A model generated the notes under the pieces. The model saw nothing but the letters and a program-made list of their open reading frames with translations. It did no database searches and was not told the DNA's origin. From Patescibacteria group bacterium (GTDB lineage Bacteria > Patescibacteriota > Patescibacteriia > UBA10025 > JAHIVO01), in the NCBI GenBank assembly GCA_041660605.1, contig JBAZWB010000002.1, forward strand, positions 239,940 through 303,939: a DNA stretch of 64,000 nt, in the 5' to 3' direction. Both the position numbers and the translations under genes were made by a program. Shown piece by piece: positions 11,641 through 63,472 of this stretch; the stretch's first letter is position 1, and every line of letters starts with the position of its first letter.

Positions 11641-11706
11641 CGGTCGGAACTATGTATCTAGCCGCTACAAAAATTAAACAGACGACAAATATATTTCTTT
11701 TATCAG

Positions 11707-44240: not shown

Positions 44241-44575
44241 ATTACCCAGACCGCCCCCTTTGTGTCATCCTGAGGAGTGAGCGCAAGCGAACGACGTGAG
44301 AATCTCGCTATCTTCAGCACCTGGGGTTGCCACACCCTCACTGCGTTTGGGCTCGTAATAACAAAAGTGGGGCGGGGCTTCGCGAAGGCGAGTTTAATTA
44401 CTTTTCTGGGTGACCAGAAAAATTGCAAATATGATATACTGTAATCAAGTATTTATAAAATATCAAAGCAAGCTTTAAATATTAATCATCGCGAGGCCAC
44501 GGGCCGAGCGATACACCCTTTGCGGAAAGCGTTGGAAACCATCCGCCCATTGGCGGAGGGTTTCCGAAATAATCT

Positions 44576-45251: not shown

Positions 45252-45489
45252 ACATTATACCAATAATTGGTCGAAATAAAGGCTAATTTAACACTAAAAT
45301 ATAAGGAGAAACGCCTAGTGGGGATATAAAAACTAGCAAAAAGTTATCAAATAAAACATTTGATGTCCCGCTAAGCCGGGATTTTTTATCTCCTATATCG
45401 ACCAGTCATTGAGAACTTTAACAATCAGAAAGTGATAAGAAGAAACGTCAATTTCTTTTTGAAAGTTTTTTAAAACTTTCATTTTTTTC

Positions 45490-46987
<1,498 letters not shown>

Positions 46988-47290
46988 AAGGAGAACTTAA
47001 TTTCCTTTCGGGGAAATTATTGTAGGTCGATGATCAGATTTTATTATCTGATTTTGAAATAATTTTTGACGTTTCTTTCTTATCACCTTTTGGTTGTTAA
47101 ATAATATATACAAATCTACAGCCCAGTAAAATCATGAGTTTGATTTTTACCAAGATATTTAGTACAATATTGACAAACAGGCTGTAGTTTTTTTATTTAA
47201 TAAACAATATACAGGGGCGACTAGCTTCCACCTCCGTCCGCCTGGGGCGGACTTCGGCGGACACGCAGATGGTTATTAAAGCCCAGTGGT

Positions 47291-47367
47291 GGGCGACTAG
47301 CTCAGATGGTTAGAGCGCGTCACTGATAATGACGAGGTCTCAGGTTCGATTCCTGAGTCGCCCACCA
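47291..47367 (+). tRNA. tRNA-Ile (GAU) with encoded CCA
   Basis: Acceptor GGGCGAC/GTCGCCC, anticodon loop CTGATAA, T-arm GGTTCGATTCC. Confidence 0.85.
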
Positions 47368-47573
47368 CTGGGGTCTATAAAGCTTGCCTACCCCTCAGAG
47401 TTGAACAAAACAAGGCGAGCAGGGTTTAATGTCAGGTTCCCCCGCCACAATAAATTAAATGAACTAAAGTGGAGCGGGGTCCGCCTCCCATCGGGCCTGA
47501 GAGGCCTCAGGGCCTCGAACGGCTGGCGGAGATTCCTGAGTCGCCCATTTGAAAAAAACAATTCGCTCCAATA

Positions 47574-47897
47574 ATGGAAATAAATAAACTCCAAAAAACA
47601 TTGCGGGATTTGGCAGAAAAAAAGAACTGGGGCAATTCCCCCGCTGAAATAAATTTTGCTGAAAAAATTGCTCTCCTCCACGCAGAAGTTTCAGAAGCCC
47701 TGGAAGCTTACCGTAAGGGTAATTTTCAGGGCAAAGATGGCGTCGGTGAAGAACTTGCTGATATATTAATTCGAACCATCCATCTTGCCAGCATTTACGG
47801 GCTTGATCTGGAAAGAGAAATCAACAAAAAACTTAAAATAAATTCAGAAAGAAGCTGGGATAATGACCAGCTGCACATCGATAAAAAAAATTGCTAG
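47574..47897 (+). CDS. MazG-like nucleotide pyrophosphohydrolase (small all-alpha NTP-PPase)
   Basis: EVSEALEA...EELADIL... EExxE/D motifs typical of the MazG/dimeric dUTPase superfamily. Confidence 0.6.
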   Translation: MEINKLQKTLRDLAEKKNWGNSPAEINFAEKIALLHAEVSEALEAYRKGNFQGKDGVGEELADILIRTIHLASIYGLDLEREINKKLKINSERSWDNDQLHIDKKNC

Positions 47898-47938
47898 GAA
47901 TAATATAATTATTATTTTCAAATGCCGAAGATATTTGT

Positions 47939-48010
47939 GCCGAGGTAGCTCAGTGGTAGAGCGAAGGACTGAAAATCCTTGCGTCGCCAGTCCGATTCTG
48001 GCCCTCGGCA
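47939..48010 (+). tRNA. tRNA-Phe (GAA)
   Basis: Acceptor GCCGAGG/CCTCGGC, anticodon loop CTGAAAA, T-arm GCCAG-TCCGATT-CTGGC. Confidence 0.85.
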
Positions 48011-48035
48011 TTTGAGAATAATTTCGTGATTAAAA

Positions 48036-48190
48036 AATGCAGCTCAGTGGGCCGAAGCCACGAGTGAAGCAAACTGCTTTGCTTCACGAGGAGCTGAGGC
48101 GGGCGAGATGATACGGGAACCGCCATCGAGCCCCGGGAGAGCGAAGGACTGAAAATCCTTGCGTCGCCAGTCCGATTCTGGCTCTCGGCA
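48036..48190 (+). pseudogene. Disrupted second copy of tRNA-Phe with an 85-nt hairpin insert in the D region
   Basis: 48129–48190 reproduces the 3' two-thirds of tRNA-Phe with 1 mismatch. The 5' part (GCAGCTCAGTGG) is separated by a GC hairpin insert. Confidence 0.5.
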
Positions 48191-48497
48191 TAAGTGAAGC
48201 ATTAATAACCCAAACTGAAAATTTTACCCCGTACTTGACGCGAAGCGGCATAGTGCGGGGCCTTGCGTCGCCAGCATGCCCCACGAAGTTGAACGTAGCG
48301 AAACGTAGCGGGGGGGAGACCCGCCCCGCTGACTAGCGGGGTTCTTGAGAACAAATAATAAATCAAATGACGAAATCCCGCCGCATGGCGGGATGGCCCT
48401 CGACATCTTCAGGGGCTTGCTTTTGTTGTGGGATAAACTATACTATACTGAAACTATATTAGATAAACACTAAACTTGAGTATATATTTCCCCTTAT

Positions 48498-49331
48498 ATG
48501 ATTGAAAACTCAGAATATTTAAAGGAAGCGGCACAATCTTCGATGGATTTCTCAAAGATCCAAATCGATGAAATACTTAAAGCTCATAATACCGGACAGC
48601 CGATTGAATTTGAGTCATTTAGCCCATATATTGCGGACCATGACCTGGCTCATGGAGATATTCGATCTGGAGGCCTAACTAATGAGGAACAGATCGGATT
48701 ACAAATAAGTAAAACTTTACGGGAACAGCTACCGGAGGCGCGGATGGTTTCATTGTATGATGAATACAATACCAATGTTCCGGATAGTGCGGATCCATCC
48801 GGTCGACCCATGTCTGACGGCAAGCAAGTTGGATTGCCTGATGATGTAAAAAATAATTTCAAACAAGGCATTATCAGGGTTCTACGAGAAAACAATTTGA
48901 GCAGGGATGACGACTTGCTTATTTCAGAAAGCAGTAAAATTAAAGCAGCTCACACGCTTGAGCAACGGCTACGTGAACACGGCTTGGTCTTCGAACGTGA
49001 TGGTGCGGTATACTTCCGGAATCCAAATCCTGAAAATCCCGCTTATGCTGAAGTGCTCCTTCGATCAAAAAACGGACGGTGGATGTGCGAAGCGCTGGAT
49101 GCTTCAACCTACTTAGATCCAAAGAACCTGGATATAACACATATCGTTGCCCTCTCAAACCACTTCAAACCGCAGCAGGACAAGGTTTGGGAAATTTTGC
49201 GATCTCTCGGTATCCAGAACCGCAATTACCACAATATTTTCTATGACGAGACGCTACCACCAGAGGCTGTCGCTGAGGTGATTCGGGAAAAATTTATCAG
49301 GGCTGGACAGACATTTCAGGCGGCCGCGTAA
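48498..49331 (+). CDS. Hypothetical protein
   Basis: 277-aa ORF with no recognised motif. Confidence 0.45.
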   Translation: MIENSEYLKEAAQSSMDFSKIQIDEILKAHNTGQPIEFESFSPYIADHDLAHGDIRSGGLTNEEQIGLQISKTLREQLPEARMVSLYDEYNTNVPDSADPSGRPMSDGKQVGLPDDVKNNFKQGIIRVLRENNLSRDDDLLISESSKIKAAHTLEQRLREHGLVFERDGAVYFRNPNPENPAYAEVLLRSKNGRWMCEALDASTYLDPKNLDITHIVALSNHFKPQQDKVWEILRSLGIQNRNYHNIFYDETLPPEAVAEVIREKFIRAGQTFQAAA

Positions 49332-49423
49332 AGAACTTAAAGCTTGAAATTAAACAAAACCCGTGATACAGTATTATCACGTATTTTGGTAATATTTGAT
49401 AATTAACCGAGCTTATTTGCGCC

Positions 49424-50455
49424 ATGTATATCGTTGCTACTATCTCAAAAAATTCTTACCCGGCAGAAAAAATTGAAGAAATTCTGAAAGCCGGAGCAAC
49501 TATGCTGAGATTTAATTTTTCTCATGGCACACCGCAGGATCAGGCTGGCCATATACAAACCGCCAGGACTGTAATCGCGAAACTAGGGCTTGAAAAATCC
49601 GTTAAGATAATAGCTGATTTACCGGGCGACAAATTACGCCTGGGTACGTTCGAACCGATCCATTTCCCGATTAAAAAGGGACAGCTCGTAAAATTCGTAT
49701 TAGACTATAATTCAGATGATCCTTCTAAATTTATCCCCATTGATGCTGATAATATTTGCAAATATCTGAAAGCCGGCCAGCCTATTAGTGTCGGCGATGG
49801 CGATCCTGCTTTAATCATCACTGAAATCATTGATGAAAATACTTTTACCGCGCTGGTGCAAAATAATGGCGGTATTCAATCTATGAAAGGATTTAATATC
49901 GGGAGAGGGGTTGACGAACTAGACCATTTTACCAAGAAAACACTGGAAAGTATTGCCTATTTGCCCAAGATTAAACCAGATTTGATTGCCCTGTCCTTTG
50001 TTAATAATAGGGCTTATTTAAAAAAGGCAAAAAAATTGCTGGCTGAGCAATATCACTCAGATAAGTTACCACCCTTAGTGGCAAAACTGGAAACTCCTGA
50101 AGCAATTAAAAATCTTGACGAAATAGCTAAGGATTGCGATATTTTCATGGTTGCCCGGGGTGATCTGGCTATTACCGCGCCATATGAAATGCTCGGTATC
50201 TACCAGAAACAAATTGTACAGGCTGCCAAAAGAAATAATAAGCAGGTGATAGTTGCCACTCAGCTTTTAGAAAGTCTAATGGAAAGCCATACTCCGACCA
50301 GATCAGAAATATTGGATCTGACAAATATTGTTCTCGATGGTGCTGATGGCATCATGTTTGCTAAGGAAACTGGTTTGAGTCTGACGCCTGGCTATTCAGT
50401 GTCAATTGCAAAAAAAATAATTAATGCCGTCGAAAAGAATAGAGATAAAATATAA
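49424..50455 (+). CDS. Pyruvate kinase-like protein (barrel domain only, no C-terminal regulatory domain)
   Basis: RFNFSHG and MVARGDLAI PK signatures. Only 343 aa. Confidence 0.6.
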   Translation: MYIVATISKNSYPAEKIEEILKAGATMLRFNFSHGTPQDQAGHIQTARTVIAKLGLEKSVKIIADLPGDKLRLGTFEPIHFPIKKGQLVKFVLDYNSDDPSKFIPIDADNICKYLKAGQPISVGDGDPALIITEIIDENTFTALVQNNGGIQSMKGFNIGRGVDELDHFTKKTLESIAYLPKIKPDLIALSFVNNRAYLKKAKKLLAEQYHSDKLPPLVAKLETPEAIKNLDEIAKDCDIFMVARGDLAITAPYEMLGIYQKQIVQAAKRNNKQVIVATQLLESLMESHTPTRSEILDLTNIVLDGADGIMFAKETGLSLTPGYSVSIAKKIINAVEKNRDKI

Positions 50456-50754
50456 CGGGGTGTAGTTCAGTTGGCTAGAACGCTCGCTTCTTGCCCCGCC
50501 CCAGGTACAGGATTGCGCTCTTAATAAAAAATTATAGAGAAATATATTCAGGTCGGGGTGTAGTTCAGTTGGCTAGAACGCTCGCTTTGGGAGCGAGAGG
50601 TCCGCGGTTCGAGTCCGCGCACCCCGACCTGAATATGTTTTTAAAACCCTGGTGGCGGGGTGAAGGAGCGAGAGGTCCCCGGTTTCCCGCCACAAATATT
50701 TAATCTAATGTAGGCGGGACCCCGCCGAATGGCGGTGGCGAGTCCCTACCTGCC
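50456..50754 (+). pseudogene. Outer, disrupted tRNA-Pro copy enclosing the intact gene
   Basis: 5' half (50456–50491) and 3' half (GGAGCGAGAGGTCC ... CGCGCACCCCGACC at about 50651–50754) of tRNA-Pro. The intact tRNA and GC hairpins lie between them. Confidence 0.45.
50554..50627 (+). tRNA. tRNA-Pro (UGG)
   Basis: Acceptor CGGGGTG/CACCCCG, anticodon loop TTTGGGA, T-arm CGCGG-TTCGAGT-CCGCG. Confidence 0.85.
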
Positions 50755-50797
50755 AGTAGGCAGTCGCGCACCCCGACCACTCAATAAAACCAATAGT

Positions 50798-51124
50798 ATG
50801 AGTAAGAATTTTTACAACCAAGTATATTTTTTGGTAAAAAAAATTCCACGGGGCAAAGTCGCTACCTATGGGCAAATTGCCGCATTAATTGGCTCCCCCA
50901 GAGCCGCACAAATGGTCGGCTGGGCAATGCATGCCATGGACGGCGGCCGGCTCGAAGAAATACCCTGGCAAAGGGTGATCAACCGTGAAGGTCGCATCAG
51001 TACTACCTGCATCATCCACCCGCCGGATGAACAAGCCCGACTGCTGAAAAAAGACGGCGTGCAGGTGTTAAAAAAGAAAGAGGGCCACTTTGTTGACTTA
51101 AAAAAATATCTGTGGCAACCTTAA
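50798..51124 (+). CDS. Alkyltransferase-like (ATL) protein, MGMT-family DNA-binding domain with Trp replacing the active-site Cys
   Basis: ATYGQIAALIGSPRAAQMVGWA ... IPWQRV (canonical IPCHRV). Confidence 0.6.
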   Translation: MSKNFYNQVYFLVKKIPRGKVATYGQIAALIGSPRAAQMVGWAMHAMDGGRLEEIPWQRVINREGRISTTCIIHPPDEQARLLKKDGVQVLKKKEGHFVDLKKYLWQP

Positions 51125-51222
51125 GTATAAATAACGCCGAGCCTACGGGTCTTGTGGGTCCCGAGGCGAGGCGTACCTAATAGGGAAAAGATGCAATGAA
51201 GGGAAACCGCAGGTGTCCCTTC

Positions 51223-51400
51223 ATAAACACGCGCGGGTATCGTATAACGGTATTACCTCAGCTTTCTCCCGAAAAATAAGGAGCGAAGCGACTATATTTT
51301 TCGGGATCCTCGCAACAAGATGGGCTTGTTCCACCCTCCTCATCGTTGCGGGACAAGCTGATGACAGGGGTTCTGCGCCATAGGTACACCCGCCTTTGGC
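51223..51400 (+). pseudogene. Disrupted copy of tRNA-Gly(UCC) with an 88-nt insert in the anticodon loop and a diverged T-arm
   Basis: 5' part identical to the intact gene through CCTCAGCTTTC. Then an insert, then AAGCTGATGACAGGGGTTC. Confidence 0.5.
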
Positions 51401-51455
51401 GGGGAACTCATTAAATAAAAAATTTATATAGTTAATTCCCATAGAGCGGGTATCG

Positions 51456-51519
51456 TATAACGGTATTACCTCAGCTTTCCAAGCTGATGACAGGGGTTCG
51501 ACTCCCCTTACCCGCTCCA
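51456..51519 (+). tRNA. tRNA-Gly (UCC) with encoded CCA
   Basis: Acceptor GCGGGTA/TACCCGC, anticodon loop TTTCCAA, T-arm AGGGG-TTCGACT-CCCCT. Confidence 0.85.
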
Positions 51520-51636
51520 TGGGAATTAAAACTTAAAAGCATCCTTACCCGCTCCAATATCAAACTTTCCGATTTTTTTGGCGGAATGCTATTCTGAAAT
51601 ATATTATAAAAATTTAAAATCTGATATAATCCATAT

Positions 51637-52251
51637 ATGTCAGACAAAATTTTGTTAAATAAAGAAATACATATATTTACCGAAAACGATTTGCCATGCT
51701 TAATTACTTATGCTGAAAAAACAGGAGGTTCACATTTCAGTATAACTATGGTGGTAGACTTATTTTTGCATGGTTCAAAAATTTTATTTCTTACAGCATA
51801 TCCAATGGCGAAAGAAAATTTTTTAGAACAGATTGAAATCGATCATTCAAAAATTGCCCTTGTTAATTCCCCAGGCGATTTAGAAAAAGCAAAAGATTCC
51901 CAAGTCATTATTTTAGAGAGCGGAAATGAAAATTTGTTCTTTGATGTAGTAAAAACACTTCCTGATTTGCAAGAAAGGGTTGTCTTGATTAAAAATATGG
52001 AAGTATTTACTCAAGCTGTTTTTGATGTTTGTATAAGTATGAAAAAAATTATTTTATCTGGAAATATTGATACATGTATCGATAAAGAGAGAATTAGTAA
52101 AAAATATTTTAAAACAATAATTGCTTTTTCTAAACCAGATATTTTGTTACCGATAGAAATCCCAGTATTAGAAAAATATGTTGGTTATTTATCAAATAAA
52201 GACGAGAGCGGTAATGTAATTGTTCAAAAAATTCAGAAATATGACAGATAA
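51637..52251 (+). CDS. Hypothetical protein (islet cargo)
   Basis: 204-aa ORF in the AT-rich islet. Confidence 0.45.
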   Translation: MSDKILLNKEIHIFTENDLPCLITYAEKTGGSHFSITMVVDLFLHGSKILFLTAYPMAKENFLEQIEIDHSKIALVNSPGDLEKAKDSQVIILESGNENLFFDVVKTLPDLQERVVLIKNMEVFTQAVFDVCISMKKIILSGNIDTCIDKERISKKYFKTIIAFSKPDILLPIEIPVLEKYVGYLSNKDESGNVIVQKIQKYDR

Positions 52252-52687
52252 AAAATACATGGCTCTTGCAATACTTGAAGCAGAAAAAGGTAAAAAATTA
52301 GGTAATTTACCTTTTGGTGCTGTTTTAGTTAAAAATGCTGATATTATTGGTTCTGCTCATGCAGAAGATATTACTTCAACAGATGTATCTGCTCATGCAG
52401 AACTTCAAGCAATCCAACAAGCATGCAAAAATTTAAAAACAAGCAATTTAAAAGAATGTGTACTCTATACTACAAATGAACCTTGTGCCATGTGTGCAGG
52501 TGCTATTCTTCAGTCAGGTATTTCTAAAATTGTGATTGGAGTTATTCGTGGAGATATTCCCAATAGGTTTCAACCGAAAAAAATTGGAATTGATGAATTG
52601 ATTGAAAATTACAATTATAAGCCAGAAATCATAAGAGGGGTTTTGAAAAGTGAAGTTATTGAATTATTTAAAAATGGCAAACTTTGA
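52241..52687 (+). CDS. CMP/dCMP-type zinc-dependent deaminase (TadA/guanine deaminase-like)
   Basis: HAE...PCAMCAGA zinc-binding motifs. Confidence 0.65.
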   Translation: MTDKKYMALAILEAEKGKKLGNLPFGAVLVKNADIIGSAHAEDITSTDVSAHAELQAIQQACKNLKTSNLKECVLYTTNEPCAMCAGAILQSGISKIVIGVIRGDIPNRFQPKKIGIDELIENYNYKPEIIRGVLKSEVIELFKNGKL

Positions 52688-53039
52688 CCCAAAAACATAT
52701 CACATTATCGGAATGAGTCCCGGTAATAATTATTTCAAAGATGAAGAAGTTCATTATCTTTTGAAAACTGTCGTTGAGCGATATTCGGCGGCGGAAAAGC
52801 GAGGGCGGGAACTTAATAATATTTCAAGATCCTCACCCCGTCATTCGACGAGGTCCGCCTTTTGCGGTGACTCTCGAGATCAATTAATATAATCAAATGA
52901 CGAGATCCCGCCCTGGTGGCGGGACCCTTACCCGCTCCAACGGAAAATCAATTTAATAAGTTATCCCCAGTCAATCTCTTGACCGTTTTTTGATTATTAT
53001 TTATTATTATATCGTATTACGATATAGTATATATTTCCT

Positions 53040-53363
53040 ATGAATAAAGAGCTATTAAAAGGGCATTCTGAATTAATTATCCTCTCCGCTCTGGCCAAAA
53101 AACCAATGCATGGATACGTACTCTCCGAGGCTTTGCGCGAAGCCATGCCAGACATGTTTCAGTTTGGAGTTGGCATGCTATACCCCCTGCTGCATAAACT
53201 TGAACGGAAACGCTTGATTACCGGCCAGTGGCTGGAAGTCGGCCATGCACGGAGAAAAGTCTATTCGCTCACGAAAAACGGTAAAAAACAATTAGCCTCC
53301 CAAAGCAAAGAGTGGCGGGCTTTTAATCAGGCAATAAACCAATTAATGTCACGATCGTCATGA
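53040..53363 (+). CDS. PadR-family transcriptional regulator
   Basis: Winged-helix PadR signature ELIILSALAKKPMHGYVL...YPLLHKLERKRLI. Confidence 0.8.
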   Translation: MNKELLKGHSELIILSALAKKPMHGYVLSEALREAMPDMFQFGVGMLYPLLHKLERKRLITGQWLEVGHARRKVYSLTKNGKKQLASQSKEWRAFNQAINQLMSRSS

Positions 53364-54658
53364 ATCCACAGGAATATATAAATAAATTTACTGAAAAACT
53401 AAACACTGGCGGCCTGAAACGCCAAGAAATTATTGAAGAACTAAAAAACCACATCAGCGATTCAGCTGAAACGGAAAATCTAGAAAAAAATATCGGTAAC
53501 CCGGAAACACTGGCCCGTACCTATGACCGGACTCATCTCGGCTGGCTATATTCCAGAAAACGAATTCTCCTCATCCCCATACTGCTTGGTATATTCTTTA
53601 TGCTAATGCAAAAAATTGCTCCAAACCTCAACTCCGTCGACTACTATTGGAATCCATCCGGGATGGCTTTTACTAATCCAGACTTGTTTTATTTCTATAA
53701 TCTTATCCGGGATATCTTTATTCTCATTCCACTGACAGCCGCCGCTTTAATCGGTCAAACAGCTGCACGGATGCATAAAATACAGACGACTCTCCTGCTG
53801 GCAATCGCCATTACTTTTATAACCTGCGCTACTTTAAATCTCCTGCAAAATATCCCACGATATATCAAATTTTTATCAACTCCAAATATTGTCATTGGTA
53901 CGCTTTATTACGAAGTGCTCTTCCAGGCAGTATTTACTACCGTCCTTCTCAGTATTACGGCGTTTTGCACTATGGCTTTTAGTGGTTGGAAAAGTTCATT
54001 AAAAACTCAGTTTACACGAGGAAAGTTTTACTTCCAAACCCTGGTACTTATCGTCGCCTCTATTATTCTATTTTTTGTTATTTCGTTAATTACTGAAATG
54101 ATTTTGGTGCCTTATGATCTGACAATGCCGGAGATGCGTCCAGCTGTAGGAACTTTTGCTAGAGAACTGAACGATTTTTTTGAAGGTGGCATTGGCGCAG
54201 TGCTCCCGTCAATCGTAGTCATAGTTTTATTGTGGTATTCATTTATCAAACAATCATACAATAAAATCAAAGAGGCCAACCAGCTCAATAGAGCCCAGGC
54301 AATTACTTTTTTTATCATTTTAAGTGCGGCCGCATATGCCTTTATCTTCAACTTACAACTTAAGGAATATTCATCATTTGCCTTCCCTTTGGCCGCGCTG
54401 GGGGTTACCTTGTCATATCTAAAACCGCGTTTTTGGTTTGTCTGGGGGATTTTACTCGGTTTATTAGTGCCGATTCTGGATCAAATTAAAAATTTTCTAG
54501 TTCATTCTCCTACGGATTTCATCCATTCCGGAAAAATGCTAATTCCAGCATTACTTGGCTCATTGATTGGCTTCCTGGTTGTAAATTTAAAATATTCGTC
54601 TTCAAATAACACGCCAAGGCAGCATGTAGAGCACAATAAGCGGATTATTTCCAATTAA
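53360..54658 (+). CDS. DUF1700-type membrane protein, PadR partner
   Basis: N-terminal HAAS/DUF1700-like domain (IISDSAETE...GNPETLARTY) followed by multiple TM helices. Translationally coupled to padR. Confidence 0.6.
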   Translation: MNPQEYINKFTEKLNTGGLKRQEIIEELKNHISDSAETENLEKNIGNPETLARTYDRTHLGWLYSRKRILLIPILLGIFFMLMQKIAPNLNSVDYYWNPSGMAFTNPDLFYFYNLIRDIFILIPLTAAALIGQTAARMHKIQTTLLLAIAITFITCATLNLLQNIPRYIKFLSTPNIVIGTLYYEVLFQAVFTTVLLSITAFCTMAFSGWKSSLKTQFTRGKFYFQTLVLIVASIILFFVISLITEMILVPYDLTMPEMRPAVGTFARELNDFFEGGIGAVLPSIVVIVLLWYSFIKQSYNKIKEANQLNRAQAITFFIILSAAAYAFIFNLQLKEYSSFAFPLAALGVTLSYLKPRFWFVWGILLGLLVPILDQIKNFLVHSPTDFIHSGKMLIPALLGSLIGFLVVNLKYSSSNNTPRQHVEHNKRIISN

Positions 54659-55003
54659 TATCCGCTGCTGATTAAAATACATTTATTAAAAAAGGAGGCA
54701 ACCGGCTGGTTGCCTCTCGCATTACCCTGAAGGAAATGCTCAGCGTCATCGCGTCTCACGCTATCCGCCTTCGCCTTCCTTACGCAGTAATGTGATAATG
54801 ATGGGGGGTTGGTCCATAATACCCCTCCTCAATATTGTTTGTTGTACCGTAATTGGTACATTTTTATAGTAACATTTTAATAAGTTAAGTAAAGCTCTCT
54901 TACGCCACCGGATATAAATGTAAGTGATTGACACAGGCATTGCCTTGTGTTAAGTTGATTGAGTTCCTTTTGCTATCAATCACTCTAATTATAGGAGGGA
55001 GAA

Positions 55004-55360
55004 ATGCGTAGAATCTCCTTATGCTGCCTGGCTGTTATGCTGCTAATGCTGGGAATTGCCGGCTGTGCAAAATCGTTAGAACCTTCTGATGACGGAAGAT
55101 TCCACTTTCATGGAGAGGATCTTCCTCAGATTGAATTTTTATACGATCCCGGATCGTGGCTGATGACCGTTTCCAATAAGACGGACATTAGCGCAAAAAT
55201 CAAAATCCAATCCAATCTGGAAAGTAATGGTATCAGCTTTACTCTTGGGGGTTTCAAAGAGCACAGCTACCATGAATACTACGAAAGCAATAGCACTATT
55301 CACATCGCCATAACCCGGCTTGGTGAAATCTACAAATTCACGGTAAAGCTTAAATACTGA
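55004..55360 (+). CDS. Lipoprotein, hypothetical
   Basis: Signal peptide with lipobox LGIAGC. Confidence 0.55.
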   Translation: MRRISLCCLAVMLLMLGIAGCAKSLEPSDDGRFHFHGEDLPQIEFLYDPGSWLMTVSNKTDISAKIKIQSNLESNGISFTLGGFKEHSYHEYYESNSTIHIAITRLGEIYKFTVKLKY

Positions 55361-55655
55361 TATGGCTTTCATGGCAACAACAATGCCGCTTTTCTTCACT
55401 AACAAATCTGAAGAGACGCGGCGTTTTTTTACTGGGAGTTAAATTTCAAAAATTCAATGCGCTGCCTCGTGGAGGTTGACCCCGCCTGCCATGGAGAGGC
55501 GGGGTTGACATAATCTATTAGTCTGCTAAAATAGGCAATCAAATCTCACCCTTTTGATAGGGTGTTTTTTGATACCCAAAAATTGGCTAGTAAAAGCTAT
55601 AAATATGCTTTTATTGCTAATTTTAGCCAAATTACTATTAATAATTGAGGAAAGT

Positions 55656-56183
55656 ATGGAAAAGTTGTTAAAACTGATAAAAATCAAAAACATAACACCC
55701 GCCGTGCTGATAATATTAATCTGGCAGATTTGCTTCCCTCAGCATGTCATGGCCTTACAAATAAATACCAATAAAAACCAGCTGGTGGCTAATAAATTTA
55801 CGGAACAATGGCTGATGGTGAATATTGCCGATTCATCCCAGGAAAAAGCGTCTTTACGCCTGCCGGAAAATGCGGATCGGCCACAGCCAAAAGCAAGAAA
55901 AACTATGCGCATCTCCGTGACAGCCTATTCTTCAACAGTTGACCAATGCGGCAGCAGTCCGTTTACCACCGCTTCAGGCACGCAAGTGCGGGATGGCGTC
56001 ATTGCCGCCAATTTCCTGCCGATTGGCACCAAGGTCAGGTTTCCGGATTATTACGGCAGTAAGATATTCACAGTTGAGGATCGCATGAGCAATCGTTACT
56101 GGTACCGGGCGGACATCTGGATGGCTTCCAGGGATCTGGCAAAACAATGGGGGGTCAGAAACATCATGATAGAAATCATCTAA
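55656..56183 (+). CDS. 3D-domain protein (YuiC/MltA-like cell-wall associated)
   Basis: VTAYSS...DQCGSSPFTTASG...LPIGTKVRFP...DRM aspartate-containing 3D-domain pattern. N-terminal TM helix. Frame opens at 55554; the start chosen here is the ATG after the GAGGAAAG RBS. Confidence 0.6.
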   Translation: MEKLLKLIKIKNITPAVLIILIWQICFPQHVMALQINTNKNQLVANKFTEQWLMVNIADSSQEKASLRLPENADRPQPKARKTMRISVTAYSSTVDQCGSSPFTTASGTQVRDGVIAANFLPIGTKVRFPDYYGSKIFTVEDRMSNRYWYRADIWMASRDLAKQWGVRNIMIEII

Positions 56184-56344
56184 TAATGCATAATCAAAAG
56201 CCTCGATTTATAAAGTCGGGGTTTTTGGAATGCTAAATACTTGATAAATACAGGCAATTCTGTTATGATTTGAATATGTAGATTTAAAATCTGCTGTTTT
56301 ATTAACGAAACCCAGGACGAAAATATAATATAATTATTGTCTTG

Positions 56345-56460
56345 GCCAGGTAGCCCCGCCCGCCTTGCTCCGCAACGCGGAGCGGGCGTGGCAAGCCCCC
56401 GCCAGTAGGCGGGGTAAAATCCAGGCAGTGGTCTGTCCCGCCAAGGGGCGGGACCCCGCA
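56345..56460 (+). pseudogene. Disrupted copy of tRNA-Cys with GC hairpin inserts in the D loop and anticodon loop
   Basis: GGCCAGGTAGCC, a 68-nt insert, AGGCAGTGGTCTG, an insert. All collinear with the intact tRNA-Cys. Confidence 0.5.
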
Positions 56461-56523
56461 ATACATTAGAAAAAATATAAGAGTGCGGGACAAAACCAAA
56501 ATATACGGCACCCTGAAAGTAAT

Positions 56524-56598
56524 GGCCAGGTAGCCAAGTAGTAAGGCAGTGGTCTGCAAAACCACTATTCACGGGTGCAATTCCCGTCCTGGCCTCCA
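56524..56598 (+). tRNA. tRNA-Cys (GCA) with encoded CCA
   Basis: Acceptor GGCCAGG/CCTGGCC, anticodon loop CTGCAAA, T-arm ACGGG-TGCAATT-CCCGT. Confidence 0.85.
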
Positions 56599-56713
56599 GC
56601 CAAATTTGTTGGTTTTAAAAACTAAAATGACCGCCGAGCCTCGACTTCACGTCGGGCGAGGCAAACAAATTAGGGAAAAAGAAGTAATGAGGAAAAAACC
56701 GTAGGTTGTTTCC

Positions 56714-58252
56714 TCATAGCCACGCGCGGGGGTAGTTCAGTGGTAGAACGCTTCCTTGCCAAGGAAGAGGTCGCGGGTTCAAGTCCCGTTCCCCGCTCCA
56801 ATCGGAAAATTTGAATTTTTCAGCGGCGCAAAGCCACTGATTAGATAATGAAATTAGGGCTTTCCCGCCAACGAGGCGGAAGTTCGAGCCAATTTTTTGT
56901 ATAAAATTTCTTTTTGCTTCTAAATTTTCTTGTTTTGATGTAAAAGGGGCTTGGTGAGCGTCTAATATCCATTTTCTGAAGAGTTCGAGCCGAGCGTCGC
57001 CCTTATTCTTAAAACTATCCAGTAATTCCTTAATTTCAACCAGCCGGTTGACGATTTTTTGTTTGGCTTTGTCAAATACCTCTTTAGAAATTCCTTGGTC
57101 TAATCTCTCATCAAGCAGTAGCAATAGTTTTTCCTCTAATTTAGCTTGCTCGCCTTTTAACGCCTGAATTTCCTCGCCATGCTTAGTTGTTGCTTCTTTG
57201 ATTTCCCCGTCAACCTTAATTAACATTTTGTCTTTCCAATCATCAGGCAGGGCGACGCTCTCAATGGTTTTATTGATCTGGCTGACCAAGTGCCTTTCTT
57301 CAATGAACTTCTGCGAGCAAACCACATTTTTCTTGGTACAGCGATAATAAACATATTTCAACCCTGAAGGTTTTTTCTTTCTTTCGGCAGTTACCATGCG
57401 TCCGCACTCACCACAGGTGAATACGCCCCGGAATGCGAAAGGCAGAAGGTCTTTTTTAACCCTGGTCTTTCGTTTGGCCGAGTGAACCTTCTGCACTTCG
57501 TCAAATAACTGCTTGGTAATTATCGGCTGGTGACTGCCCTGGTACATTTCGCCCTTGTGCAAAAATACGCCGTAATAAAACGGATTGGTCAGCATGTCTA
57601 CTAGCTTGGAAATGACGATTTGCTTATTTGTCCTACGGCTCACCAAGCCCAGCGAAAGCGACAGCTTCTGCAGTGAATAAATCGTGTGATTGCCCCCGGC
57701 ATACGCCTCAAAGAGCTTTTTGACTATCTGCCAGCGCTCCGGGTCTTTGATGATGGTGTGGTGCCGTAATTCGTTCAGATAGCCGACAGGCGCGAGCGCT
57801 GGCCATTCGCCCCGGCGGAGCTTTTGGCGTATGCCGCGTTTGATATTTTCGCATAAGTTATCAATGTAGTATTTGCTCTGGCCAAAAGCGATATTAAGCA
57901 TGAATTTTCCCTGTGGCGTGGCATCAAACCAAAATGTAGGAAATTTTAAACCGCCAATCTTGCCAGTATCCACCATAAAAATGATTTTTCCGCCGTCAAT
58001 GCTGTTTCTGGCCAATCTGTCCGGATGCCACGCCAAAATGCCCATAGGGCCATTTTCTTCTATGCGCTTGATCATTTTATTAAAAAGAGGACGACCGGGC
58101 ACTTTGGCCGTCTTGCTTTCTATGTATTCGTCAATTACTTCTAAATTTTCCTTAATCGCAAATTCTCTTAATTCCGTTATTTGCGATTCAATGGATAAAA
58201 CCTGCCGGTCGTCCTCGTCAGTTGATTTCCTGGCGTAGATTACATATTTCAT
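56714..58252 (-). CDS. Large serine recombinase (resolvase/invertase N-domain, recombinase domain, zinc ribbon)
   Basis: N-terminal YARKSTDEDDRQVLSIESQ with the catalytic Ser. Downstream recombinase domain with CGECG...YYRC zinc ribbon. The 3'-terminal roughly 170 nt runs through IR-A and antisense tRNA-Gly, so the true C-terminus is uncertain. Confidence 0.85.
   Translation of the reverse strand: MKYVIYARKSTDEDDRQVLSIESQITELREFAIKENLEVIDEYIESKTAKVPGRPLFNKMIKRIEENGPMGILAWHPDRLARNSIDGGKIIFMVDTGKIGGLKFPTFWFDATPQGKFMLNIAFGQSKYYIDNLCENIKRGIRQKLRRGEWPALAPVGYLNELRHHTIIKDPERWQIVKKLFEAYAGGNHTIYSLQKLSLSLGLVSRRTNKQIVISKLVDMLTNPFYYGVFLHKGEMYQGSHQPIITKQLFDEVQKVHSAKRKTRVKKDLLPFAFRGVFTCGECGRMVTAERKKKPSGLKYVYYRCTKKNVVCSQKFIEERHLVSQINKTIESVALPDDWKDKMLIKVDGEIKEATTKHGEEIQALKGEQAKLEEKLLLLLDERLDQGISKEVFDKAKQKIVNRLVEIKELLDSFKNKGDARLELFRKWILDAHQAPFTSKQENLEAKRNFIQKIGSNFRLVGGKALISLSNQWLCAAEKFKFSDWSGERDLNPRPLPWQGSVLPLNYPRAWL
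56726..56800 (+). tRNA. tRNA-Gly (GCC) with encoded CCA; integration target
   Basis: Acceptor GCGGGGG/TCCCCGC, anticodon loop TTGCCAA, T-arm GCGGG-TTCAAGT-CCCGT. Confidence 0.85.
56795..56886. repeat. IR-A, left copy (92 bp, perfect)
   Basis: Reverse complement equals 58329–58420. Confidence 0.9.
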
Positions 58253-58328
58253 AGTTGTCGCTTTCGCTTAATTCTTATCAGTCAAAATTGGCTACCCCGC
58301 GGGAGCGGGGTGTTCCGCAATGCGGAGC

Positions 58329-58420
58329 CGAACTTCCGCCTCGTTGGCGGGAAAGCCCTAATTTCATTATCTAATCAGTGGCTTTGCGCCGCTGAAAAAT
58401 TCAAATTTTCCGATTGGAGC
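58329..58420. repeat. IR-A, right copy (92 bp)
   Basis: Perfect inverted match to 56795–56886. Confidence 0.9.
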
Positions 58421-58560
58421 TGCTTTTACCGAAAAGTTCGGACTTTCTTTCTATGAATTCAGGCGGGCGGAAGGGGGGTCTGGGGGGAATTCCGCCCGCC
58501 TGCCCTCTCCGCAAAAAAATTAATTAAATGGGCTTTTAAAAAAACAAGGAGATTTTTCGT
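58415..58560. repeat. IR-B, left copy (146 bp)
   Basis: Reverse complement matches 63473–63618 with about 5 mismatches. Shares the TGGAGC core with IR-A. Confidence 0.85.
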
Positions 58561-58652
58561 AATCCCGCAGAAGCGGGATGCGCCGCGTTAAGGATAGCCC
58601 TTGACCCTCCCACCCGTTCGCAGGCATTTACTCCCTGAAATCAGGATATTCT

Positions 58653-58680
58653 AATTTTGAATATTCATATTTTGAATATA
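58653..58680 (+). promoter_or_regulatory. Candidate operator: two direct TTTTGAATAT repeats with an internal GAATATTC palindrome upstream of the XRE gene
   Basis: TTTTGAATAT at 58655–58664 and 58670–58679. Confidence 0.4.
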
Positions 58681-58690
58681 TCATAACCTT

Positions 58691-58909
58691 ATGGATAAGA
58701 CAATATATCTGAATAAATACAAACGAATTGTCGAAAAGCTTAAAAGTGCCCGTCTTGAAGCAGGATTAACGCAAAAACAAATAGCAGACAGGCTAAAGGT
58801 GCCACAATCGTATATATCCAAAGTTGAAGCAGGGGACCAAAGAATCGATATTATTGAGCTAAAAGCATTTGCCGATCTTTATAAGAAATCGATCACTTAC
58901 TTTATTTAA
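58691..58909 (+). CDS. XRE/Cro-type helix-turn-helix transcriptional regulator
   Basis: LTQKQIADRLKVPQSYISKVEAG HTH_3 signature. Confidence 0.75.
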   Translation: MDKTIYLNKYKRIVEKLKSARLEAGLTQKQIADRLKVPQSYISKVEAGDQRIDIIELKAFADLYKKSITYFI

Positions 58910-59082
58910 TTTCAATCAATAAAAATGGGCGTTTCTATACGCTTTTTTTATTTATCCACAGGGTAAGTGGGTTGACGGTTTATTTTATATGTGATAAGGT
59001 GTAAAGGAATCAATATTCTAGGATATTAATACGATAAATAATCACATAACTTATACCTTAAGAATTAACCTTAAAAACACAT

Positions 59083-59319
59083 ATGAAACCTAAACCGCCT
59101 ACAAATGAGACAAAAAGAGATAGATTCAAGAGACTTGCTGAATACAGGACAAATGAAGTATTGAGTAAATTAAAAATACTTGGTAATTGCTCTAATCAAC
59201 AAGCATATGACTATACTGAAGAGGATATACGAAAAATTTTTGATTCAATTGAAAAAACGACACGAGCCGTAAAATCAAAGTTTCAATTAACGCCTAGGGA
59301 TAAAGAATTTAAATTCTAA
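59083..59319 (+). CDS. Small hypothetical protein
   Basis: 78-aa basic ORF directly upstream of the ATPase gene. Confidence 0.4.
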   Translation: MKPKPPTNETKRDRFKRLAEYRTNEVLSKLKILGNCSNQQAYDYTEEDIRKIFDSIEKTTRAVKSKFQLTPRDKEFKF

Positions 59320-59341
59320 GTGTCTTTTTAAAGTTTATTTT

Positions 59342-61087
59342 ATGTCGTTAAAATTACATATATCTCCAAGAATAATTCCAAGCATTGCCAGTCTATATAA
59401 TGACGTCAATAGAATTTTCATGGAATATATTGACAATTCCATCGACAGTGCTGAAAAATTTTTTACTAATGATATTGATCAGTATTTAAAACCAATTGAG
59501 ATTGTTATTAAAATCTCTGGTGAAAAATTTAGGGACGGAAAAGTAACAATAAGTGATAACTGTTTCGGTATTACAAATTTTGGAAAGGTAGTAGAGAGCA
59601 TAGGTAATTCAGATAAAAAGGCGGATTTTACCACAAACGGACAATTTGGCTATGGCATCTACTCGTATATGGCAGCATGTGAAAAATTAGAAATTACTTC
59701 AAAGCTTGATGATCAAGAAAAGGCACAATACCTGCCCATTGAAAGAAAACAATTCGACACAGATCGCCAAGAAAATGTAAAAATTCCTGATCCAAAAATT
59801 GTAAATTTTAAGATGCAGTCTGGAACAATGATAAGTCTGTCCGGTTTTGAAAAACATTCATGGAAAGAAATAAACGCAGAAGAATTAAAAAATGAGATCG
59901 AAAAACACTTCGAGTTATTATTAGCCAGAAAAAATCTTTTTGTTAAAGTTATTGACGCTAAAATGAACGAACATATATGCAAGCCGTATAATTATTCTCA
60001 ACATGAAGGTGAGGTATATGACGACAATATTAACTCGGTATGTTATAAAAAGGGAATTATATCCCCAACAACTGTCAAATTTAATTTAAAAAAACCAATC
60101 CATATTTATCTTAAACTAACAAAGGGCAAATCAATCAATAAACCACCAATTTTTGTTGCCAAAGGTAGACGGGTGGGCGAGATAAAAGACGTCAGGTCAT
60201 TTAAATCAACCCATAAAAGCGATCTATGGGCACACCCAAATATAACAGGCTATATTGATTTAAATGATTTCTTGGATCCAACTATCGCAAGAAATGATTT
60301 TAAAAATACCGATAAATCAAAAGCGTTATTCGCTACTGTTAACAAATTAGAGGAAATTATTTTAGACGAGATTATAAGGGCTAACAAAGAAGCAGAGGAA
60401 CGACACTATAAAGAGCTAGAGGACAGACTTAACCAAATACTTTCTAAACTTGCAAGAATTGATGCCATGAATTATCGGACTGCATTTTTAACCGGAAATA
60501 ACATTAATTTACAACAAGGCGGTACAGGACAAATAATTGAAGGTAAACGCGGATCAAAAGACCGTGGTGGCGACCCCACAAATGAAAATAATGATCACCC
60601 ATTGGGTGAGAATGAGGGTTTTGGAAAAGGAATTGGAGGATCAAAGGGAAATATCCCTGGGGGTGAGAATGGCGACAATGCTTCGAACAAGGAAGCTGAC
60701 AACCCTTTTGAGGACACCGGATTTAAAGGAGGCGAAAAGAAAAAAAGCGGCTTTAATATAAGGATTGTTGACAGTGATCCCGATATTGATCAAGAAACTA
60801 ATAAACCAATTAGATCTTTACTTGTTGGTGACGAAATAAGAATCTTCAAAAAACATCCGGACTTCGAGGAACGGGTTGGGGAGTCTAGAAAAAAAGAAAA
60901 ACGAATCACAGAGCGTTTAGTCACATACATCGCTGGCGAAATAACAGTTCACTATAAAGACAAATATTTTACCCGATATGGTCAACCAGATTATAATAAA
61001 AAAATGTTTTCAGACTTAGTTGAATTTATTTATTCAATTGAAACATCGCTTGCTGATTTGGTTGGCAGGAACTTGTCTGACTATTAA
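59342..61087 (+). CDS. GHKL-superfamily (HSP90/MORC-like, HATPase_c) ATPase with a long C-terminal region containing a G/N/D-rich linker
   Basis: Bergerat-fold motifs: N box EYIDNSIDSA, G1 box ISDNCFGIT, G2 box GQFGYGIYS. Confidence 0.7.
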   Translation: MSLKLHISPRIIPSIASLYNDVNRIFMEYIDNSIDSAEKFFTNDIDQYLKPIEIVIKISGEKFRDGKVTISDNCFGITNFGKVVESIGNSDKKADFTTNGQFGYGIYSYMAACEKLEITSKLDDQEKAQYLPIERKQFDTDRQENVKIPDPKIVNFKMQSGTMISLSGFEKHSWKEINAEELKNEIEKHFELLLARKNLFVKVIDAKMNEHICKPYNYSQHEGEVYDDNINSVCYKKGIISPTTVKFNLKKPIHIYLKLTKGKSINKPPIFVAKGRRVGEIKDVRSFKSTHKSDLWAHPNITGYIDLNDFLDPTIARNDFKNTDKSKALFATVNKLEEIILDEIIRANKEAEERHYKELEDRLNQILSKLARIDAMNYRTAFLTGNNINLQQGGTGQIIEGKRGSKDRGGDPTNENNDHPLGENEGFGKGIGGSKGNIPGGENGDNASNKEADNPFEDTGFKGGEKKKSGFNIRIVDSDPDIDQETNKPIRSLLVGDEIRIFKKHPDFEERVGESRKKEKRITERLVTYIAGEITVHYKDKYFTRYGQPDYNKKMFSDLVEFIYSIETSLADLVGRNLSDY

Positions 61088-61092
61088 ACTAT

Positions 61093-61962: not shown

Positions 61963-61976
61963 TTAATAATAATCAT

Positions 61977-62549
61977 ATGCAAGAAAAAATCGATAGCGAG
62001 TTAAACGCAATTAACAACATTATCAAATCTCTTGAATCTCTGGATGAGGCGGCCAAAAAGCGCGTTCTTAGTTACGTATCAGAAAGGTTGGGTCTAAATA
62101 CTCTAGGCAAGCCCGGATTTTCTAATGAAGTCAAACCCTCTCAAATTAATCAAAATGCTCCAACTGGACAGGATCAAATAATAAATCTGGGGTTAAAAGA
62201 TAGTGTGGTTGATATTAGGACCCTAAAAGATCAAAAATCGCCAAAGACAGCTACACAAATGGCGGCCTTAGTAGCTTTTTATTTACAAGAATATTCGCCT
62301 GAAAATGAACGCAAAGAAATAATAAAGCCACAGGACATAACAAAATATTTTAAGCAAGCGAATTATCCCTTACCCAAAGGAAGACCAATAGTTACACTAG
62401 TAAATGCAAAAAATGCTGGCTACCTCGAATCAGTCGGCGAAAGCGCGTTCAAATTAAACCCGGTTGGCTATAATTTAATTGCCCATCAACTTTCTGAAGA
62501 AAAAAGTAGCGGTAATTCAAAAAGGCAACACAGGGCAAAGAAAAAATAA
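61977..62549 (+). CDS. Hypothetical protein (operon partner 3)
   Basis: 190 aa with a basic C-terminus. Confidence 0.5.
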   Translation: MQEKIDSELNAINNIIKSLESLDEAAKKRVLSYVSERLGLNTLGKPGFSNEVKPSQINQNAPTGQDQIINLGLKDSVVDIRTLKDQKSPKTATQMAALVAFYLQEYSPENERKEIIKPQDITKYFKQANYPLPKGRPIVTLVNAKNAGYLESVGESAFKLNPVGYNLIAHQLSEEKSSGNSKRQHRAKKK

Positions 62550-62551
62550 AT

Positions 62552-63406: not shown

Positions 63407-63472
63407 TAATCTGATAAACTTATTCTGATTACCGAAATAGAGCGATAAGCGGCGCGCGCCGTACTCGGCGCC

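Follow-up and report, generated by a model that had tools for sequence, protein, structure and literature searches.

The DNA analysed here is a stretch of 64 kb (the window) from a 960-kb contig of a Parcubacteria/Paceibacterota bacterium, a member of the candidate phyla radiation (CPR). Exact-block mapping revealed that six of its seven transfer RNA (tRNA) genes are adjoined by collinear, same-strand copies of their own fragments, interrupted by short GC-rich hairpins; only tRNA-Gly(GCC) is free of such copies. The bacterial 16S ribosomal RNA (rRNA) gene occupies positions 45484-46985 and is followed by tRNA-Ile(GAU). An initial annotation had reported partial copies at Ile(GAU), Phe, Pro, Gly(UCC) and Cys, all of which were borne out by the mapping. 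To these we add a sixth locus, tRNA-Ile(UAU), on the minus strand at 11.3-11.8 kb, the second of two successive copies downstream of tRNA-Phe (copy 3, 48214-48405), and a third tRNA-Gly 3' fragment (52925-52939), located 1.4 kb downstream. The intact and disrupted copies are arranged as follows, where "module" designates a conserved sequence of ~60 nt and slashed numbers give the tRNA positions between which an insert lies.

11706-11780, minus strand: intact tRNA-Ile(UAU); leader and trailer form an inverted repeat, TTTTATCAGT / ACTGATAAAA, which together with the acceptor stem makes a 22-bp terminal inverted repeat.
11368-11660, minus strand: disrupted copy of tRNA-Ile(UAU), lying downstream of the intact one; its blocks are 11629-11622, 11552-11534, 11493-11483 and 11380-11368, and its 15-nt trailer is identical.
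11621-11553, 11533-11494 and 11482-11381, minus strand: inserts of this copy, respectively a D-loop double hairpin, an anticodon-loop hairpin and a T-loop insert, the last ending in the module-like GACGAAATCCCGC and a hairpin (11421-11382).
47215-47275, plus strand: 5' fragments of the outer tRNA-Ile(GAU), positions 1-12 (47215-47226) and 13-22 (47266-47275).
47227-47265, plus strand: hairpin splitting these two fragments (39 nt, 74% GC).
47282-47372, plus strand: cassette of the inner, intact tRNA-Ile(GAU) (47291-47367); the leader CCCAGTGGT (47282-47290) pairs with ACCACTGGG (47364-47372).
47382-47547, plus strand: 3' part of the outer tRNA-Ile(GAU), with a hairpin (47382-47420), a T-arm fragment (47432-47439), a 91-nt double hairpin (47440-47530, T-loop 56/57) and a 3' block (47531-47547).
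47917-48010, plus strand: working tRNA-Phe (47939-48010) with, upstream, a pseudo-5' acceptor strand and leader TTCAAATGCCGAAG (47917-47930) complementary to the tRNA 3' end and trailer.
48041-48205, plus strand: tRNA-Phe copy 2, with block 48041-48050, an 87-nt D-loop double hairpin (48051-48137), a second block (48138-48190) bearing one C-to-T change, and the trailer TAAGTGAAGCATTAA.
48214-48405, plus strand: tRNA-Phe copy 3, with blocks 48214-48222, 48261-48274 and 48394-48405, an anticodon-arm hairpin (48223-48260) and a 119-nt T-loop insert (48275-48393) whose 3' part is the module (48343-48393).
50456-50489, plus strand: 5' half of the outer tRNA-Pro, 34 nt, identical to the inner gene.
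50490-50664, plus strand: anticodon-loop insert of the outer tRNA-Pro, in which a split GC palindrome, CCCCGCCCCAGG (50494-50505) / CCTGGTGGCGGGG (50648-50660), encloses an AT-rich spacer and the intact tRNA-Pro (50554-50629), the latter with the inverted repeat ATATTCAGGT / ACCTGAATAT on its two sides.
50665-50779, plus strand: 3' half of the outer tRNA-Pro, with block 50665-50684 (one T-stem mismatch), a 54-nt double hairpin (50685-50738, T-loop 55/56), the separating CGAGTCC, a 19-nt hairpin (50746-50764, 61/62) and block 50765-50779.
51233-51445, plus strand: outer tRNA-Gly(UCC), with the block of positions 1-34 (51233-51266), an 87-nt double hairpin (51267-51353) set precisely between positions 35 and 36 of the anticodon, block 51354-51373, and a T-loop insert from 51374 containing the hairpin 51389-51403.
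51432-51556, plus strand: inner, intact tRNA-Gly(UCC) (51446-51519), whose terminal inverted repeat measures 21 bp with one mismatch; next comes the outer 3' fragment CCTTACCCGCTCCA (51543-51556).
52872-52939, plus strand: distal Gly joint, made up of the module CTCGAGATCAATTAATATAATCAAATGACGAGA, the hairpin TCCCGCCctggtGGCGGGA and the 3' fragment CCCTTACCCGCTCCA (52925-52939).
56344-56523, plus strand: disrupted tRNA-Cys 5' copy, upstream of the intact gene; blocks 56344-56355, 56392-56395, 56423-56435 and 56491-56498, D-loop hairpins 56356-56391 and 56396-56422, and a double hairpin (56436-56490) between positions 34 and 35.
56524-56598, plus strand: intact tRNA-Cys.

For each tRNA, the bases covered, within 700 nt, by exact blocks on the same strand that were 8 nt or longer were counted and compared with shuffles. 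Five of the tRNAs had 51-103 such bases, the shuffles giving a mean of ~8 and a maximum of 44; the value for Cys (33) fell inside the shuffle range, its blocks being nonetheless collinear. The blocks match the intact gene exactly or almost exactly (34+14+14 nt for Pro, 34+20+14 nt for Gly, 45 nt for Phe, and 19+13 nt for Ile(UAU), of which the 15-nt trailer is identical too).

The initial annotation described each partial copy as lying beside its gene. Such an arrangement is found at Phe and Ile(UAU), whose copies are downstream and 5'-truncated, and at Cys, whose copy is upstream and 3'-truncated. At Ile(GAU), Pro and Gly(UCC), however, the intact gene lies inside the disrupted one, with the outer 5' pieces upstream of it and the outer 3' pieces downstream. 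Besides this nesting, the leader/trailer inverted repeats, the module and the fact that the targets are dead copies had been overlooked. The outer Ile(GAU) breaks after position 22 and resumes at 50, the outer Pro breaks after 34 and resumes at 37, and the outer Gly breaks after 54 and resumes at 61. Also, the outer Pro starts directly after the stop codon of the pyruvate kinase gene, which is the site of the sole tRNA-Pro in a relative (contig L003), and the outer Gly(UCC) is preceded by the same structured leader of ~95 nt as tRNA-Gly(GCC). The outer Pro and outer Gly thus hold the native gene positions. These two-hairpin leaders, at 51136-51232 for the outer Gly(UCC) and at 56630-56725 for Gly(GCC), differ in three pairs of the second hairpin that are changed on both sides, and a search of Rfam gave no family match for them.

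Each disrupted copy is still incomplete after an ideal removal of its inserts. The 5' acceptor strand is missing from Phe copy 2 and from Ile(UAU), the anticodon arm from the outer Ile(GAU), and the entire 3' half from Cys; two anticodon nucleotides are absent from the outer Pro, which also bears a T-stem mismatch, and six T-arm nucleotides from the outer Gly. None of them can therefore yield a complete tRNA, and we refer to them as relics. A scan with ARAGORN in intron mode returned a single addition, a spurious tRNA-Lys(CUU) with a 77-nt intron (50456-50629), which is a chimera of the outer Pro 5' half and the inner gene 3' half. With Rfam models, at the gathering threshold and at E values up to 5, we detected tRNAs and 16S rRNA only, with no group I intron, ribozyme or tmRNA; among the disrupted copies only Phe copy 2 obtained a tRNA score (28.9 bits, just below the gathering score). 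Patescibacteria tRNA genes are known to carry group I introns, with 35/36 among their sites (PMC13011429). Taking a covariance-recognisable ribozyme core of about 200 nt or more as the mark of such introns, we rejected them as candidates, since no Intron_gpI or ribozyme match was obtained up to E 5 and the inserts measure merely 19-119 nt. The bulge-helix-bulge motif was absent as well: the terminal pairs of the hairpins are flush with the tRNA sequence, without 3-nt bulges around a 4-bp helix. No splicing endonuclease (EndA) or ligase gene was found in the annotated parts of the window.

The inserts, which had been described as GC-rich palindromes of 20-90 nt, were mapped as hairpin-forming sequences of 19-119 nt and 49-81% GC. 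They consist of one hairpin or of two abutting ones, with the first and last bases paired. The smallest unit is a hairpin of 18-19 nt such as TCCCGCC-NNNN-GGCGGGA; bigger units are made of two abutting hairpins or carry extra hairpins within a loop. Most units start with (T/C)CC(C)G and finish with C(G)GG(A/G), and the junction of double units, CGGGA|TCC..., is itself a palindrome. The pattern CCGCCNNNNGGCGG occurs 5 times for 0.03 expected. Thus terminal inverted repeats such as those of MITEs (miniature inverted-repeat transposable elements) are present, with termini (T/C)CCCG...CGGG(A/G) and whole units palindromic. The target-site duplication that also characterises MITEs was found at none of six precisely restored sites, and the window contains no autonomous relative bearing a transposase. 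The 20-mers said to be shared by two of the inserts do exist, at shifted coordinates (50681-50700 and 47435-47456).

CCCG...CGGG hairpins with a stem of at least 6 bp are nearly confined to the relics: 16 of the 19 present in the window fall within ~1.8 kb of relic DNA, and 8 of 10 are in relics in a related organism (contig L011, see below), while control Parcubacteria loci of similar GC content contain 0-1 per 10-21 kb. One hairpin of the family type, CCCCGCCTGCCATGGAGAGGCGGGG (55481-55503), is the sole intergenic one with no recognisable tRNA fragment nearby. More GC-rich hairpins were observed upstream of trmD, for example TCCGCCcattGGCGGA at 44542-44557.

Once the insert is removed, the tRNA sequence is exactly recovered, with no base duplicated or missing, at six sites: Gly 35/36, Cys 34/35, the Ile(UAU) D-loop, Ile(GAU) 12/13 and 56/57, and Pro 55/56. 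With loop classes assigned by hand, 13 of the 16 insertion sites of the window, and 17 of 25 when L011 is included, are in the D-, anticodon- or T-loops or at their borders (~35-40% expected by chance, p about 2e-4 to 4e-3). Site 35/36 of the anticodon received a single insert, in the outer Gly(UCC), the others being in D-loops, T-loops and stems. At the D-loop site of the Phe copies, the two species carry different inserts. A target rule of the IS200/IS605 kind was discarded, as no tetranucleotide is common to the 5' flanks of the inserts. In general, insertion is probably directed to centres of dyad symmetry, among them the loops of hairpins already in place. The family of miniature elements targeting tRNA loops that had been suspected from the first reading is therefore supported by shared termini and architecture, near-confinement to relics and loop preference, as well as by recurrence at other loci, in reversed orientation and in another species.

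An assembly artefact was excluded. A second, independent NCBI assembly is 99.995% identical to the window across 40798-61124 (20 kb), a Logan contig from a different sample covers the entire Ile(UAU) relic with zero differences, and a further Logan contig stops precisely within the duplicated blocks, as expected for true repeats. Thus the independent assembly and contigs of two other sequencing runs agree.

Relatives were sought through the synteny of the pyruvate kinase gene, of which the nearest homolog was 62% identical; synteny was lost and most loci were devoid of a tRNA. A metagenome scan with the motif that precedes three of the terminal 3' fragments led to contigs L011 and L013 (Ga0299912), from an organism whose 16S rRNA gene is 86-91% identical to that of the window. 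The gene order of L011 is that of the window (16S, Ile(GAU), Phe, Pro), with the relic architecture at Ile and Phe and a clean Pro. A hairpin of 34 nt in the T-loop relic of the window Ile(UAU) is 100% identical to the D-loop insert of the upstream Phe relic of L011, in opposite orientations relative to the tRNA. Such identity, reversed and in another tRNA, favours a discrete DNA element over an RNA-level intron or convergence. Viral contigs were searched for this hairpin and for the module, and gave no match.

Comparison of the Phe loci provided direct evidence of replacement among duplicated copies. Phe copy 2 of the window and its trailer are 97% identical over 68 nt to the functional tRNA-Phe and trailer of L011, of which it is the ortholog; in L011 a dead, hairpin-ridden Phe copy stands upstream of the working gene. 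The same gene is thus at work in one species and a wreck in the other. The inner Ile cassettes are orthologous between the two species, and their leader/trailer pairs, CCCAGTGGT/ACCACTGGG in the window and CCCTCTGGT/ACCAGAGGG in L011, differ by two compensatory pair flips. At the L011 Ile locus GCGCACCCACCA occurs twice as a direct repeat, and the displaced Ile 3' part is of another allele than the working gene. This working tRNA-Ile(GAU) (2150-2226, minus strand) has an unusual T-loop, TGCAAAT in place of TTCGAxx, and an unusual D-loop, AGGTAGTTA; the canonical GG and TTCGA motifs persist in the surrounding dead fragments. In a distant lineage (L003 and L018, GW2011 genomes), 3' tRNA fragments with structured T-loop inserts follow tRNA-Gly and tRNA-Pro, the insert family being different from that of the window. 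The tRNAs free of relics are Gly(GCC) in the window, Pro in L011 and Cys in L003.

The module reads TTCTYGAGAWCA...AATCAAATGACGARA followed by a TCCCGCC-loop-GGCGGGA hairpin. It was found at seven loci, namely Phe, Gly and, in a diverged form, Ile(UAU) of the window, Ile and Phe of L011, and twice at Gln of L013, always directly 5' of the most distal tRNA 3' fragment of 12-15 nt. The L011 Ile and window Gly modules are 97.5% identical and those of the orthologous Phe copies 90% identical, with nearby relic DNA unalignable, and the subfamilies cross loci and species. The hairpins of the modules, orthologous ones included, differ through added hairpins within their loops (loop length 4-45 nt), which are thus cases of hairpins nested within hairpin loops. 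The module probably marks old integration or duplication joints. Scans with sigma-70 promoter and intrinsic terminator consensus sequences were unconvincing, and a short open reading frame (ORF) starting at its ATG was rejected, the frame not being conserved and one copy having no ATG.

The working genes themselves are flanked in a particular way. At intact Ile(UAU), Ile(GAU), Pro and Gly(UCC), complementary leader and trailer sequences extend the acceptor stem to 16-22 bp, the extension alone being an inverted repeat of 9-14 bp; at Phe the pseudo-5' strand and leader a few bases upstream of the gene take this role. The L011 Ile has a terminal inverted repeat likewise, and the relic-free tRNAs are without it. 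Folding of the loci gave z = -7.9 for Pro, which folds as a tRNA within a tRNA, and z = -4.6 for Ile. Bacterial RNase P is reportedly hindered by pairing of the leader with the 3' RCCA (PMC9433436), so that it is unlikely that the extended stems simply assist normal processing.

We propose, with moderate confidence, that very short GC-rich palindromic DNA elements have colonised the disrupted copies, which are the dead remnants of earlier copies of the tRNAs. This explanation builds on the anatomy of the loci, the confinement of the hairpins to relics, the bias towards loops, the sharing of elements between loci, orientations and species and the replacement of the ancestral Phe gene, all of which are established. 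In the scenario that we envisage, tRNA genes would become locally duplicated or replaced first, and the hairpins would follow. The palindromes would enter the DNA flush at centres of dyad symmetry, that is, in tRNA loops and in the loops of earlier hairpins, and such insertion would be ongoing. As a hit in a single working tRNA gene would be lethal, only redundant copies would let the elements survive. Their nature as DNA elements is argued by mixed orientations, by insertion that is flush and by nesting, and by their presence at several loci and in both species; their mobility is suggested by their distribution. The enzyme that moves them might be, as a guess, a structure-specific recombinase or a single-strand transposase. 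At most loci the working gene is a self-contained cassette, inside or adjoining the relic of the copy that it superseded.

Several points weigh against this explanation. No transposase or other enzyme could be linked to the hairpins, the sole recombinase of the window being a large serine recombinase that belongs to an ordinary integrated element, and no presence/absence polymorphism between strains was seen, the samples being identical at the tRNA loci. The loop classes behind the insertion bias were assigned by hand, and the observations cover 64 kb of a 960-kb genome plus two related lineages. The complementary break points (Pro 34/37, Gly 54/61) exceed what simple tandem duplication gives, and the split 12-bp GC palindrome around the inner Pro is not accounted for by it either. 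The module is as conserved between species as 16S rRNA, which could mean function over mobility. Finally, identity of the relic blocks with the working gene extends to the Ile locus, the layout of which is shared with L011 and seems to predate the divergence of the two lineages. Such identity in an old-looking layout calls for gene conversion, recurrent re-creation or selection, and selection on the blocks would imply a function. Block identity, complementary breaks, the split palindrome and module conservation together keep two other explanations in play, one based on the mobility of stem-loops and one on a role of the RNA.

The former of these, which we hold to be possible though unlikely, is that a structure-directed system inserts stem-loop DNA at dyad centres, with a cargo ranging from 18-nt palindromes to whole tRNA genes. 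The extended acceptor stems of the tRNA genes would then act as terminal inverted repeats. A tRNA cassette that lands in its cognate gene would destroy it and replace its function at once, and would therefore survive only there, as a self-replacing tRNA gene. Such behaviour would explain the nesting of cognate in cognate, the complementary break points, the split Pro palindrome and the hairpins within hairpins.

Rather doubtful, in our view, is the proposition that all these structures are scars of repeated integrations of phage- or island-type elements into tRNA genes, in which the replacement part of the tRNA was supplied by the element, the old part was pushed away and the elements were later deleted down to their attachment (att) arms; the GC-rich hairpins would then be binding arms for recombinases or accessory proteins and not independent elements. 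The window does contain a genuine element of this kind, as listed here.

56795-63617: integrated element of ~6.8 kb, in the 3' end of tRNA-Gly(GCC).
58252-56714, minus strand: ORF of the large serine recombinase, which crosses attL into the tRNA in antisense.
56795-56886 and 58329-58420: perfect 92-bp inverted repeat flanking the recombinase gene.
58585-58329: inverted, intact attP-like copy that includes the second 92-bp arm.
63468-63617: attR, core GCTCCA.

Beyond 58 kb this element has 34-37% GC and carries HTH and HATPase_c_3 genes. Its att arms hold similar GC-rich hairpins, and elements of this sort are known to leave displaced tRNA fragments behind (PMC4383910, PMC9897764). Relic DNA is flanked by direct repeats of tRNA 3' ends at Ile(UAU) (27 nt with the trailer), at Gly (14-15 nt three times) and at the L011 Ile, and the combination of an intact tRNA with a displaced contiguous direct-repeat fragment is met at Ile(UAU), Gly, the terminal Phe fragment and the L011 Ile. 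The module abuts the most distal 3' fragment as the end of an element would, and the allelic difference of the displaced L011 Ile 3' part fits a supplied replacement. However, neither integrase nor cargo lies between the repeats at six loci, where gaps measure 23-400 nt, and the 1.4 kb at Gly contain a TadA-like gene. Upstream 5' fragments, several flush inserts per copy, inserts in D-loops, the same hairpin in both orientations and the nesting of hairpins in loops are left unexplained, and a loop varying from 4 to 45 nt beside the joint is hard to fit to a fixed protein-binding half-site. The att sites of the serine recombinase were also rejected as the source of the hairpins, attP being a normal imperfect dyad of ~40-50 bp with a duplicated core of 6 nt. 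Scars thus contribute to the terminal 3' fragments only; the terminal 3' repeats and the module may be old joints of the integrative kind.

A selected role in RNA appears less probable still. Relic blocks, hairpins and module would form a long structured pre-tRNA or 3' trailer, serving as a processing scaffold for cleavage by RNase III or as a decoy for tRNA-targeting nucleases or integrases, and such a role would account for the retention of the architecture. The strong folding scores of the Pro and Ile loci speak for it, as do the leader/trailer pairing held by compensatory changes between species, the 90-97% conservation of the module where spacers are unalignable, the persisting identity of relic blocks with the working gene, and the occurrence of the architecture in three Parcubacteria lineages. 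Yet, of the sequences in relics and hairpins, the module alone is conserved between the species, and the content varies by locus, Gly(GCC), L011 Pro and L003 Cys being without it. Palindromes and duplicated stems trivially give high folding scores, compensatory changes are also expected from template-switch correction of DNA palindromes, and the pairing of RCCA by the leader, as mentioned above, reportedly hinders RNase P.

That the disrupted copies are true multi-intron tRNA genes with archaeal-like or new splicing, the intact ones being recent intron-less duplicates, is highly improbable, and the decayed multi-intron paralogs considered in the initial annotation fall with it: the short GC-rich hairpins do sit at positions that non-canonical archaeal introns also use, one of them is at 35/36, a group I intron site in Patescibacteria (PMC13011429), and without the inserts the tRNA sequence would be exactly recovered at six sites, but the host is a bacterium by its 16S rRNA, the insert ends pair flush with the tRNA without any bulge-helix-bulge, one hairpin is present in either orientation with respect to the tRNA, no copy reconstitutes a tRNA even after ideal excision, and no group I intron or ribozyme model matches. 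An archaeal origin of the DNA, prompted by TATA-like boxes and the intron-like inserts, was ruled out, as the 16S rRNA gene is bacterial and the relatives belong to the Parcubacteria.

Coming back to palindromic DNA elements in dead tRNA copies, several known systems offer points of comparison. Repetitive extragenic palindromes (REPs) and the REPINs built from them are mobilised by RAYT transposases, and elements of the IS1397/IS110 type insert into palindrome loops. The window elements resemble them as short (~20-40 nt), GC-rich, imperfect and non-coding palindromes in many copies, single or clustered and in both orientations, without target duplication and, in some known cases, with palindrome loops as targets. 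They differ in that they lie in tRNA-derived sequence, flush in tRNA loops and nested, whereas REPs are generally intergenic; also, no GTAG-type flanking motif and no RAYT gene were seen in the window, and in particular no cognate RAYT (Y1 HUH) gene figures among the Pfam annotations of ~50 kb of it. The double-hairpin elements of Allomyces are a mitochondrial counterpart. Mitochondrial GC clusters and hairpin-forming elements were described in yeast (PMC4478555) and sponges (PMC2800124). These too are GC-rich palindromic mini-elements of a small AT-rich genome, often two adjacent hairpins, with mobility deduced from their distribution, and are tolerated in variable loops of structural RNAs and near tRNA genes; unlike those of the window, they are organellar, have no specific tie to tRNA relics, and no working gene nested in its own dead copy has been described for them.

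The tRNA fragments left by integrative elements (Islander, PMC4383910; PMC9897764) are likewise partial copies beside an intact gene, with tandem 3'-end repeats. Known ones are single contiguous 3' (rarely 5') pieces a whole island apart, whereas the window copies are made of several blocks with internal inserts, include 5' pieces, and lie 25-400 nt from the gene without an integrase. Archaeal multi-intron tRNAs (PMC4090602, PMC4033280), for which transposition was proposed, share short GC-rich hairpins at D-, anticodon- and T-loop positions and related inserts common to different tRNA genes. Their introns, however, form bulge-helix-bulge motifs, have a fixed strand and are removed from functional genes by splicing, none of which applies to the window inserts. 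No description of hairpin-riddled, nested tRNA relics in CPR bacteria was found in the literature searched. Palindromic mini-elements and tRNA remnants are each known as such, and a new mechanism of mobility behind them is a real possibility; the loci appear to represent an undescribed mode of coexistence between selfish DNA and tRNA genes.

If this explanation is true, tiny CPR genomes would harbour selfish palindromes whose niche is the loops of tRNA genes, and tRNA genes would persist by duplication and replacement, leaving nested wrecks behind. Such a process would be a bacterial, DNA-level parallel to the gain of hairpin introns in archaea, and would make the origin of disrupted tRNA genes testable in a second domain. 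The cassettes with their paired leaders and trailers, and the module, may be signs of an unusual route of tRNA maturation, or of a recombinase or transposase activity that has escaped recognition. In practical terms, intron-aware tRNA finders miscall at these loci, as ARAGORN did with tRNA-Lys, so that tRNA counts of CPR genomes may be wrong, and the duplicated blocks break short-read assemblies.

Outside the tRNA loci, two pairs of intergenic direct repeats with no relation to tRNAs were observed, at 29427-29472/32333-32378 (78% identical) and at 9457-9492/9997-10032 (89%), the latter pair looking like terminator hairpins. A Logan contig from SRR6484324 (L014) matches the window from 11744 down to ~4000 and then shows, at its end, 120 differences in ~450 nt in the region of the RNase Y gene (3570-4000), which reflects either a patch of hypervariable sequence or a chimeric end of the contig.

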